64,000 bases of DNA from a virus. Its lineage: Duplodnaviria > Caudoviricetes. The notes below the pieces were generated by a model. It had not been told where the DNA came from and searched no databases. It saw only the letters and a program-made list of their open reading frames with translations. The stretch's first letter is position 1; every line of letters starts with the position of its first letter. The stretch lies in IMG/VR virus record IMGVR_UViG_3300031555_001469; one strand, 5' to 3'. Of this stretch, positions 15,497-43,350 are shown in pieces. The translations under genes and the position numbers were made by a program.

Positions 15497-15635
15497 GCGC
15501 CTCCTTGACGCATGTCTTCTTATACCCCCGTAGTATTATAAGCTCTTTGGCTTGGGTAATAGAAGGATAAGATATTATTTCTTCTTATCACTACTATAAT
15601 ATACAAATAAAATATATGAGTTTTACGGATCATAG
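15497..15635 (-). promoter_or_regulatory. conserved early promoter + structured 5' leader, copy 1
   Basis: Homologous to 40735-40874 and 43219-43350; covarying stems; SD held in a hairpin. Confidence 0.8.
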
Positions 15636-23945: not shown

Positions 23946-24728
23946 TTACTTCTCAACTATTCTAATCGGCTTAATTACGATAGAATTAGGTTGATAATCA
24001 TCCATTTGTCTGTTAGCATTTCTAATCTCTTCTAATCTACCTTTAAGAAGATTAGCTACATACTCTGCTGATGGTAATTCATATGCACCTGTTAAATCGG
24101 TGTATATGTAATTCTTTTCGAGTAATTCCATACCCTTAGATTCTTCATAAGTCTCTGTAGCGGACTCGATTCTTTCTAAGATATCAAGCTGTTCTGGAGA
24201 GAAGAAATCTTTGTATGCTTCTACAAAGTTCTTATAAGCACCATATACTTTAGTAGTAGGTACGAATAAGTACATATTGTGTACAAGCTCATGTACTGTT
24301 TCTGCCAAAGGGATTAATCCAACCCAACAGTTGTAGTGGATCCACATTACTTCTTTGGCTACAGATTCTACATCTAATGGTTCTCTATAAGCTTTACGCT
24401 TATTGAATACTACTATAACCATATCGAATAAAGTTATAGGGTCATGATGTATATGAATCTTAATCTTGGTAGAATCTATATTAGTAATATTCTTATAGAA
24501 ACTACACTTATTCATATTAAAGTTTTCTCTTAAGAAAGCTACCATTTTTCTATACTCAAAAGAAGTTCTAATGTTTCTCTCAATATCTGCAAAGTATCTC
24601 TTAAGATCTTTTTCATCATTGAGATCATAGTCTACTATGTCGTATTCTGGTAACTCTGATATTTTTACGAGATTTATATCATTTCTTTCCACATAATCTA
24701 TAGTGATTATATTTCCTGGATCTCTCAT
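23946..24728 (-). CDS. HNH-like (His-Me finger) protein, paralogue of 14233..14895
   Basis: C...IHIHHDPITLFDMV...LIPLAETVHELVH; late promoter at 24743-24754. Confidence 0.55.
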   Translation of the reverse strand: MRDPGNIITIDYVERNDINLVKISELPEYDIVDYDLNDEKDLKRYFADIERNIRTSFEYRKMVAFLRENFNMNKCSFYKNITNIDSTKIKIHIHHDPITLFDMVIVVFNKRKAYREPLDVESVAKEVMWIHYNCWVGLIPLAETVHELVHNMYLFVPTTKVYGAYKNFVEAYKDFFSPEQLDILERIESATETYEESKGMELLEKNYIYTDLTGAYELPSAEYVANLLKGRLEEIRNANRQMDDYQPNSIVIKPIRIVEK

Positions 24729-24786
24729 ATAAACACCTCCTTTATTAGTATGTGAAAAAATAAAAATGATTAAGCAAAAATTTAAA

Positions 24787-25395
24787 CCCAGTAAGAGATA
24801 ACTCTTACTGGGATTGTTTTAGGGGATCGGACTGGTTGCTTGGATTCAACCAGTCCTAAGCGTATGAATTTGGTTTTATAGTCAAATAACAATCTGCGCG
24901 ATTGATTGTTATTTTTGTGCTTGGGGTGTGTGGGAGCAGTTGGTGTGTGAACTACTCCCACGTCAATGTTTATAAATAACTAGCAAAAGCTAGATATCTA
25001 TCTATATATTTACTTGAATGTTGTGCTCTGGTTAAAAGCTAACCAGAGCACTATTTTTACTCCTATAATAGGAGATTGTTTCCCAGTCTAGGTAGGAGAC
25101 ACCCTAGACTAGATGGATTGGAAATATATGTTTCAAAATTGAGCTAACCAAGTGTTATTGGAATTTACGAATCATAGGAAAATAGATTAGCCCATCTTAT
25201 TATCTTGAGGAGAGGGCTGATTATTAAATCAGCCCGGGAAGTTATAACGACTAGTGCCTAGTTAGGCACTTAGATAATATCCTTTTTATTGGGCCACTGT
25301 ATCCCTACAGTAGCCCATCCACTAATAATGAATAAAGGAGATCTTCAACTATGATGTTGAAGTAGCGACACCAAGACAAGTCTCATCTTAATATC
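24787..25395 (-). ncRNA. putative large structured non-coding RNA (~610 nt, at least 13 hairpins)
   Basis: Early-type promoter at 25395-25409; ORF-free; GC-enriched stems with G-U pairs that form only on the minus strand; ends in terminator 24787-24812. Confidence 0.7.
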
Positions 25396-25460
25396 ACTAT
25401 TATTATATATGGTTATAAAGGCTTTTAAAATAAAAAATAATAGGGGTGATTAAACTACCC

Positions 25461-25709
25461 CTATATTTCGTGAAACATTGGTTTATGACGCTCATCATAA
25501 AACAATGTCTCAGCATCAATTCCTTTAACAAATAGCTCTCTTTGAGACTCGTTATGCCAGTCTACAAGAAACTCATCTGTTTCAGTTTTAATTTTAGCTC
25601 TAGTTGTACCCTCTGCAATGTACAATCTGATCGCTACTATGTAGCCATGGGTTGTTGGGTTATAAACTTCTCCGCCAACGTTTTCATTTACACCTAATGA
25701 AATCATCAT
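25461..25709 (-). CDS. hypothetical early protein
   Basis: Start reassigned to the ATG after AAGGAGG (25709); early promoter at 25739-25753. Confidence 0.7.
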   Translation of the reverse strand: MMISLGVNENVGGEVYNPTTHGYIVAIRLYIAEGTTRAKIKTETDEFLVDWHNESQRELFVKGIDAETLFYDERHKPMFHEI

Positions 25710-27117: not shown

Positions 27118-27197
27118 TTTATATTACCTCCTTCAAGTAATTAATAATAGGTTTAAAAGATAGTAATTTCCAATTAGTATAGAAATTGACATATGTG

Positions 27198-27352
27198 CTC
27201 CCGTATGATCCGGCTATCATACGGGAGTTTTTGAAAGGAAAAAATTATGAAAAAGTTTTATTTCTATATGTGTAACAAGCGAAAATACTATTAATGAAGA
27301 GAAATATTTTCTTAGCTTGGAGTTATGTAATAAGGGACACGCCCTTAGATTT
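27198..27352 (-). ncRNA. candidate late small RNA (~155 nt)
   Basis: AACAttaaaaTA promoter at 27352-27363; 5' hairpin TAAGGG/CCCTTA; 12-bp hairpin at 27198-27227; no sense ORF. Confidence 0.4.
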
Positions 27353-27403
27353 ATTTTAATGTTAAATAAAATTTTTTAATTTAGTTATTTATGATACGAT
27401 AAT

Positions 27404-27435
27404 AACTCCCGTAGTAAATAAATACTACGGGAGTT
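27404..27435 (-). terminator. terminator hairpin
   Basis: AACTCCCGTAGTA-N6-TACTACGGGAGTT after the beta gene. Confidence 0.8.
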
Positions 27436-27441
27436 GTATTC

Positions 27442-40727: not shown

Positions 40728-40734
40728 ACGTCCT

Positions 40735-40874
40735 GCGCCCCCTTGACGCCCATGGCTTTTAATACCCCCGTAGTATTATGAGTCTTTGACTCGGATATTA
40801 AAAGGATAAGACATTGTATCCTCTTATCACTACTATAATATACAAGTATTTTTCCTAACTTTTACGGATCATAG
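40735..40874 (-). promoter_or_regulatory. conserved early promoter + structured 5' leader, copy 2
   Basis: Homologous to copies at 15.5 and 43.3 kb. Confidence 0.8.
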
Positions 40875-43211: not shown

Positions 43212-43218
43212 ATCTCTT

Positions 43219-43350
43219 GCGCCTCCTTAGCGCCCGTGGCTTCTATAACCCTAAAGAGTATTATAGGTTCCTTGACCCGGATATAGAAGGATAAGATATT
43301 ATTTCTTCTTATCACTATTATAATATACAAGTATATTTGTAAATTTTTAC
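43219..43350 (-). promoter_or_regulatory. conserved early promoter + structured 5' leader, copy 3
   Basis: Homologous to copies at 15.5 and 40.8 kb. Confidence 0.8.

Follow-up and report, generated by a model that had tools for sequence, protein, structure and literature searches.

The locus described here lies between two genes of a jumbo phage from the gut. The window, a stretch of 64,000 nucleotides (64 kb), is part of the 229,764-nt record IMGVR_UViG_3300031555_001469 (hereafter G000), whose sequence is present in animal faecal DNA runs, and the contigs compared from these runs are identical to the window. The phage is of the AR9/SA1 type, with a genome of about 230 kb, and in its RNA polymerase beta subunit it most resembles Staphylococcus jumbo phages, Listeria phage LPJP1 and PBS1-type Bacillus phages, at about 32% identity. 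Its ribosome sites are of strong GGAG types, most commonly AAAGGAG (72 genes), which suggests a host among the Bacillota. The locus is located downstream of thyX, between a small early gene (25461-25709) and the gene of a conserved 260-aa protein (23946-24728), and its neighbours encode ThyX, RNase H and proteins without known family. The gap itself (24729-25460), previously recognized as the largest non-coding one of the window, is the largest of the whole 230-kb genome once a 59-codon GTG frame (24782-24961) is discounted, which lacks a ribosome site and is not conserved. Its features, and those at its borders, are the following.

25461-25709, minus strand: gene A, upstream and early, of 82 aa counted from its ribosome site, member of an unnamed family and putative partner of the RNA
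25395-25409, minus strand: early (virion RNA polymerase-type) promoter, a TATATAAT-N6-G variant identified by consensus score, with the presumed +1 at G25395
24787-25395, minus strand: full-length structured non-coding RNA of about 610-620 nt, the putative early transcript, from fold z-score, homologue folds and the lack of a conserved ORF
25367-25395, minus strand: H1, 5'-terminal hairpin starting at +1, with five G-U pairs, in all six lineages
25343-25362, minus strand: H2, short hairpin, its stem conserved and its loop variable, from alignment and fold
25331-25342, minus strand: invariant anti-Shine-Dalgarno linker with core CUCCUUU, immediately 3' of H2, the longest invariant run of the alignment
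25291-25316, minus strand: H3, GC-rich hairpin whose sequence is almost fully exchanged with pairing kept, from homologue comparison
25214-25270, minus strand: two variable hairpins (25253-25270 and 25214-25235), the second with a counterpart in L027
25140-25194, minus strand: H5, stem with a large loop that holds a conserved 9-nt C/A-rich motif (25154-25162)
25083-25112, minus strand: H6, covarying hairpin whose loop displays CUCCU in the window copy
25060-25074, minus strand: H7, whose stem is an anti-SD:SD duplex, six of six pairs identical in the window copy, L020, L026 and L027
25023-25051, minus strand: H8, hairpin, from the fold
25009-25022, minus strand: internal late-type promoter (ACA-N6-TAA), from motif score, with a presumed +1 near 25011 that would give a nested late RNA of about 225 nt
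24972-25001, minus strand: H10, with an AU-rich conserved base and an exchangeable top, three copies in L027
24829-24961, minus strand: H11-H13, three hairpins with C/A-rich loops and linkers, from the fold
24777-24812, minus strand: 3'-terminal hairpin with U-rich tail, terminator-like, the tail weak in some homologues
24741-24754, minus strand: late promoter of the downstream 260-aa gene, also present in L021, which lacks the RNA

The locus is the most stably folding 600-nt stretch of the genome. Its minus strand folds at -221 kcal/mol (z -14.8) and its plus strand at -206 kcal/mol (z -10.4); with pairing spans of at most 100 nt it reaches -206 kcal/mol, against -175 for the best tiled 600-nt window of the genome (median -133, sd 16). 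Much of the preliminary description, which had been drawn from the letters of the window, holds up in this fold: all 13 hairpins that it listed recur on the minus strand with coordinates within 1-2 nt (that at 24980-24993 being the inner part of the longer stem 24972-25001), the 3' hairpin of the proposed terminator (24787-24812) and the early-type promoter (25409-25395) are where they had been placed, and so are four copies of UCUCCU, one of them locked in a stem and one predicted to be mostly paired in the window copy. The first stem does contain G-U pairs, five of them in the fold rather than four as counted before. By contrast, the enclosing helices that had suggested a single multibranch fold of about 610 nt do not hold: the helix cited for it forms only in this phage, the homologues form local hairpins, and structure prediction finds no long-range pairing, loop-loop complementarity or pseudoknot common to them. 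The locus is thus predicted to be a string of local hairpins of variable module number rather than a conserved multibranch fold.

Searches for known classes of element bear out the earlier impression that it is neither tRNA, tmRNA nor CRISPR. ARAGORN returned no match in the window, and the window copy has no internal repeat, including regular direct repeats of the CRISPR-array or type III antitoxin kind, short 11-19-nt module ends recurring in L027 only. For the window and six homologous loci, Rfam 15 (covering ROOL, GOLLD, OLE, RNase P, tmRNA, 6S, RNAIII and RsaE among others) gave no match above the gathering threshold, the weak best match scoring 29.5 bits against a threshold of 60, on the opposite strand; a search by E-value threshold likewise gave nothing credible. 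A conserved ORF with a ribosome site, as expected of a small-peptide mRNA or a type I toxin-antitoxin pair, is absent on both strands, and a frame of about 22 codons antisense to the 5' end, considered as a peptide gene, is open in only two of six lineages.

Homologues were reached via the flanking proteins, which led to contigs of close relatives (designated by L numbers). Six lineages carry the element: the window copy, L020, L026, L027, L022/L028 and L092/L093+L094, with L093 and L094 joined through a 26-nt overlap in one run; L020, L026 and L027 have neighbouring run numbers and probably come from one study, but are distinct phages nonetheless. The syntenic homologues of the five further lineages measure 694-994 nt and are 59-78% identical. 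Each keeps the early promoter, the 5' hairpin, the invariant anti-Shine-Dalgarno linker and the 3' hairpin, whereas stems covary between lineages, and hairpin modules have been gained, lost or, in one case, triplicated. L023 has a partial, different hairpin array, and in the outgroup L024 the end of a gene occupies the site. L021 has no element, with 76 nt at the site, although its 260-aa protein is 91% identical; trees place L021 among the RNA-bearing phages with the fork unresolved, so that loss of the element is likely, if not proven. Outside the clade, pattern scans of viral, metagenome and prokaryote collections, at limited depth, yielded no homologue, all inspected matches being due to chance. 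BLAST with three versions of the element against 50,697 phage records found only promoter and terminator fragments, which stand before ordinary genes in Machias and AR9. A search of G000 with a model of the 5' core gave no further copy, and the same model matched nothing in four distant jumbo-phage records, of which three are incomplete. Literature searches turned up no description of such an RNA family. The comparison thus gives good support to the earlier proposal of an undescribed large structured RNA read from the minus strand from an early promoter, and establishes a real, clade-restricted family of large modular phage RNAs, whose transcription we infer from motifs. We are highly confident that the element is an accessory locus for a non-coding RNA, belonging to a single clade of gut AR9/SA1-type jumbo phages.

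Several observations indicate that the locus is under selection as RNA, presumably transcribed from the minus strand. All six copies fold at z of about -9.6 to -21, better on the minus strand, and each homologue has 10-12 strong stems compared with 2.6 in shuffles. The primary sequence is poorly kept: at 59-78%, identity lies below that of the neighbouring gene (81-94%) and, in nearly every pair, even below that of its third codon positions (62-86%). We make no claim of positive selection, since conservation in the neighbouring thyX gap (64-83%) is only slightly higher. When hairpins were matched in sequence-only alignments, 90 of 124 double changes kept the pair (permutation mean 48, maximum 69), and RNAalifold on sub-alignments shows two-sided changes in 10 of 34 and 6 of 30 pairs; these counts come from hairpins matched by eye in six related rows and are not of R-scape grade. 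The preliminary description had also seen that stem mismatches resolve as G-U pairs on the minus strand. A strand-neutral count over six homologues bears this out, with 28 G-T against 7 A-C mismatches, compared with 38:49 in shuffles (Fisher p 0.0003, an optimistic value given the relatedness of the rows). Such a bias is expected from selection on RNA or from transcription-linked mutation, not from a DNA cruciform, and thus implies minus-strand transcription.

What is conserved resides in short single strands, above all CUCCUUU. The comparison shows the stems to be scaffolds free in sequence, which hold short C-rich single strands open. The linker is predicted to be unpaired in five of six homologues and mostly paired in the window copy, a UCUCCU is exposed at 25208-25213 (3' of the hairpin at 25214-25235), and the 9-nt C/A-rich motif of H5 is exposed and found in five of six lineages. 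Only the first seed and this 9-nt motif are conserved in position; the other C-rich loops are not. Per 100 unpaired nucleotides there are 2.1 exposed C-rich sites in the window copy and 0.9-1.5 in homologues, compared with 0.27 in 34 other gaps (p 0.0008), a 3.5- to 8-fold difference that is inflated by the higher GC content of the RNA. H1 probably protects the 5' end, and 14 of 30 early transcripts likewise begin paired. Anticodon mimicry by the H2 loop was considered and discarded, since the loop is not conserved. The 3' part (H10-H13 and the terminator) is modular. In L020 (2590-2760), about 190 nt of hairpins continue past the first terminator and end in an identical 24-nt terminator copy, which is a recent duplication.

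The promoters suggest that the locus is read twice. The early consensus, TATATTAT-N6-G, was built from 30 early genes and is found in 29 of them. The promoter of the RNA is a one-base variant of it that is kept in all homologues and scores 17.1, within the range of real promoters, 29 sites genome-wide scoring at least as high; in one homologue, the equivalent site matches an annotated AR9 early promoter. AR9 and PBS1 use early TATATTAT-N6-G and late ACA-N6-TA motifs (PMC5312081), and both types occur at the RNA locus. The early promoter of the RNA differs from the early motif of these phages by a fixed T-to-A change, which also creates a -10 box of the host sigma-A type six bases before the presumed +1, itself the first base of H1. 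The internal late promoter, missed before along with the split into two units seen in relatives, scores 15.6 (training median 13.8, maximum 16.0; about 0.05 expected by chance per 640 nt), and its counterparts score 16.0 in L026 and L027 and 8.5 in L020, with three lineages retaining the promoter. In L022/L028 and L093/L094, the 5' core is about 210-230 nt long, closes with a U-tract of its own and is followed by a second early promoter and a different 3' RNA; no terminator separates the halves in the window clade. Given the late promoter at 25022-25009 and the two-promoter-unit locus of two lineages, we believe that the locus probably encodes two RNAs, and it is best seen as a conserved 5' RNA joined to an exchangeable 3' RNA, not as one ornate fold. 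A TTGAC motif before H11 was dismissed as a further promoter, as it has no conserved partner element.

How might such an RNA act? In Staphylococcus aureus, RNAIII and RsaE bind Shine-Dalgarno sequences and block initiation, and they share a signature of 5' hairpin, terminator, variable helices and a conserved unpaired C-rich box (PMC2790875). At the level of motifs, the phage RNA has the same layout: an independent promoter, a 5' hairpin, a 3' terminator, many hairpins with variable stems and, in place of the box, the invariant linker complementary to Shine-Dalgarno sequences, which in the window copy is predicted to be mostly paired. We envisage that the minus strand would be transcribed early from the phage promoter and its 3' third again from the late promoter, that the terminal hairpins would stabilize the RNA, and that the exposed CUCCUUU seed and other C-rich loops would pair with GGAG-type ribosome-binding sites, thereby blocking 30S loading on many mRNAs at once, as the C-rich regulatory RNAs of Firmicutes do. 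Targets might be host mRNAs, in the service of takeover, or the phage's own messages, with the RNA serving as a damper or timer as it accumulates. Of the three functions proposed earlier, this RNAIII-like regulation is the best fit to an invariant anti-SD seed and C-rich loops. It is most likely that the RNA interferes with translation during infection, and by analogy it would most plausibly work like C-rich-box sRNAs, while belonging to no Rfam family. The complete statement, namely an accessory locus read early and late into a stable RNAIII/RsaE-like RNA that blocks ribosome-binding sites, is our preferred reading and a tentative one, plausible without being probable.

The reservations concern the seed. 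Apart from being mostly paired in the window copy, this sequence is generic. Its pairing energy has the same median, -10.6 kcal/mol, for early genes and for the other genes of the phage (p 0.22), so that specific targeting of early phage genes is not supported, nor is a preference for any other phage gene class. Its U-rich extension contributes nothing significant to pairing with phage genes; pairing within the RNA, after H3, accounts for it. Strong ribosome sites of the phage itself would likewise be bound by a generic anti-SD RNA. Moreover, the phage RNA differs from RNAIII and RsaE in being phage-encoded and served by promoters for phage RNA polymerases, in sharing no sequence or Rfam similarity with them, in carrying its seed as CUCCUUU in a linker rather than as UCCC in loops, and in its variable module number and nested early and late units; the peptide gene embedded in RNAIII has no counterpart in it.

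The main rival to the RNAIII-like reading, unlikely in our estimate but to be taken seriously, is a decoy for a factor that recognizes the 16S rRNA 3' tail or the SD helix. A hairpin with an anti-SD tail behind it (roughly imitating the 3' end of 16S rRNA), the duplex mimic H7 and repeated modules would soak up a host RNA-binding protein or an anti-phage or toxin nuclease, possibly together with protein A. Consistent with this, module number varies as in sponges, one module being triplicated in L027, the sequence of H7 is conserved although it is paired, and in two homologues 11 nt match the 16S rRNA tail exactly. Protein sponges of the CsrB/RsmZ type are likewise hairpins on a string, variable in number, with GGA repeated in their loops. 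Unlike in those RNAs, the loops here do not repeat one motif, the exposed motifs are C-rich, and GGA is not enriched in unpaired parts (7 compared with 4.2 expected). Both the RNA and gene A are lacking in L021, and the locus belongs to a variable early island, but this co-loss is a single case, and family A occurs elsewhere without the array. Nucleases that cut the anti-SD exist, such as the toxin MazF-mt3, which recognizes UCCUU and would fit a decoy (PMC5408214); that precedent is mycobacterial. A combination of both ideas, which we consider rather unlikely, is a modular 'polyvalent anti-SD' RNA whose interchangeable hairpins present mimics both of the 3' tail of 16S rRNA and of the SD:anti-SD helix, either for early shut-off of host translation or for absorbing a defence factor that attacks the 3' end of ribosomal RNA in the ribosome, possibly with the co-lost protein A.

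As for this candidate partner, its true start is at 25709, not 25757. Gene A is present in all six RNA-bearing lineages. Its product belongs to an unnamed family with a beta-beta-beta-alpha domain of about 65 aa (about 65 clusters, some of them tandem doubles), without a Pfam or PDB sequence match and with one weak partial PHROG match among ten distant relatives; the structural model has a pLDDT of 84 and a best structural Z of 4.0. Gene B (77-95 aa) represents a second family of small early genes, present in some of these phages and absent from others in this island: it stands between gene A and the RNA in relatives (L022:2548-2820, L027:8628-8915), is kept in L021 (1655-1888) and is absent from the genome of the window.

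Distinctly unlikely, in our view, is that the locus amounts to a cluster or precursor of unrelated small RNAs, an early 5' RNA of about 210 nt and an exchangeable 3' RNA made via separate promoters or by cleavage at long AU-rich stems. The self-terminating 5' unit followed by its own early promoter and a different 3' RNA in L022/L028 and L093/L094, the internal late promoter of the window clade and the lack of long-range pairing between the halves all speak for it; the window clade, however, has no terminator between the halves, and the repeated stem measures only 12 bp in the window copy. The several small RNAs suggested in the preliminary description are partly borne out, by way of separate promoters rather than of processing. 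Such a cluster is compatible with either a regulator or a decoy.

Could the array instead act in cis, as a long structured leader, attenuator or transcription barrier of the downstream 260-aa operon? The leader of nearby thyX shares the layout of a late promoter followed by hairpins, some homologues have a weak 3' U-tail, the ribosome site of the downstream gene is complementary to the seed, and there are three terminator-like sites on the plus strand. Against this, a separate late promoter serves the downstream gene, which is kept in L021 even though the array is missing there, the 5' unit terminates alone in two lineages, and the minus-strand G-U bias is not expected from a plus-strand barrier, which makes a role in cis improbable. 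No better are the prospects of a near-neutral relic, in which promoter and terminator hairpins left over from deleted cassette genes were perfected by DNA template switching, a process able to mimic compensatory change. The loss in L021, the narrow distribution and the fast turnover of modules would suit a relic; yet most hairpins lack U-tails, coding remnants are absent, and lineages whose third codon positions are only 62-86% identical still share the order of the modules, both promoters and the single-stranded motifs. A DNA element (a replication origin, cruciform array or retron-type template), to which the many inverted repeats might point, is very improbable, given its absence from the close sister phage L021, the lack of a skew inflection at the locus (the minimum lies about 18 kb away), the strand asymmetry of the G-U pairs and, for a retron, the lack of a reverse transcriptase, PF00078 being unmatched in a genome that is 93% complete.

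Returning to the preferred reading of an RNA that blocks ribosome-binding sites, how does it relate to other large phage RNAs? The ROOL and GOLLD RNAs (PMC12286853; Rfam) are likewise large, phage-encoded, structured and apparently dispensable, but the RNA described here matches neither covariance model, has no predicted conserved pseudoknots or long-range helices and varies by whole modules. ROOL and GOLLD lie near tRNA islands, whereas the window has no tRNA and the nearest call is more than 70 kb from the RNA. The RNAs lnc001 and lnc002 of phage K (PMC9241854) and the non-coding RNAs of phiKZ (PMC8545117) are intergenic and of unknown function, and the cited parts of the respective reports describe no comparative structure for them. 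With 635 nt and its own early promoter, lnc001 resembles the present RNA, but these phages belong to different groups, there is no sequence match among 50,697 phage records, and the phage K RNAs adjoin tRNA genes, which the RNA described here does not.

Among the non-coding RNAs of lytic phages, very few have a known role (PMC10884466), and ROOL, GOLLD and the phage K lncRNAs are large ones that have none. The present family has comparative support, defined ends and few invariant single-stranded bases, so that the RNA can be synthesized and tested without the phage. The wholesale replacement of stems, the duplication of modules, the split into units and the loss in a sister phage point to an accessory function under changing host pressure. 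If the anti-SD seed acts, a phage with its own RNA polymerases would be steering translation by RNA alone; and the polyvalent anti-SD RNA, if true, would be a new RNA-based strategy of host takeover or counter-defence in lytic jumbo phages.

A number of other elements came to light around the locus and elsewhere in these genomes. The 260-aa protein (23946-24728, minus strand) belongs to phrog_12252 and has more than 800 homologues; its nearest named ESM Atlas clusters are HNH- or nicking-endonuclease-like, which serves as a lead only. G000 has one solid tRNA call, with a CAT anticodon (68337-68412), and a second, odd one (90130-90229). A second, different early RNA of about 560-600 nt occurs at L028:4415-4990 and L094:1-640, with a well-kept GC-rich two-part hairpin and no Rfam match. 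Between the genes of the RNA polymerase beta subunit and ThyX, the gap at 27118-27441 (minus strand) contains a terminator, a late promoter and a structured thyX leader of about 245 nt. It is a candidate regulatory leader; six relatives retain its stems and C-rich loops at 64-83% identity, and it likewise lacks an Rfam match. At least five early mRNAs of G000 share an almost identical A-rich leader of 18 nt at their start, with the SD at the end of the leader. Finally, a structured early leader with a short hairpin at +1 and an SD-covering hairpin at its end is present in at least seven copies (15497-15606, 40728-40874 and 43212-43331 of the window, minus strand; 40077, 49046, 97121 and 215600 of G000), and the promoter and first hairpin of the RNA resemble its start.
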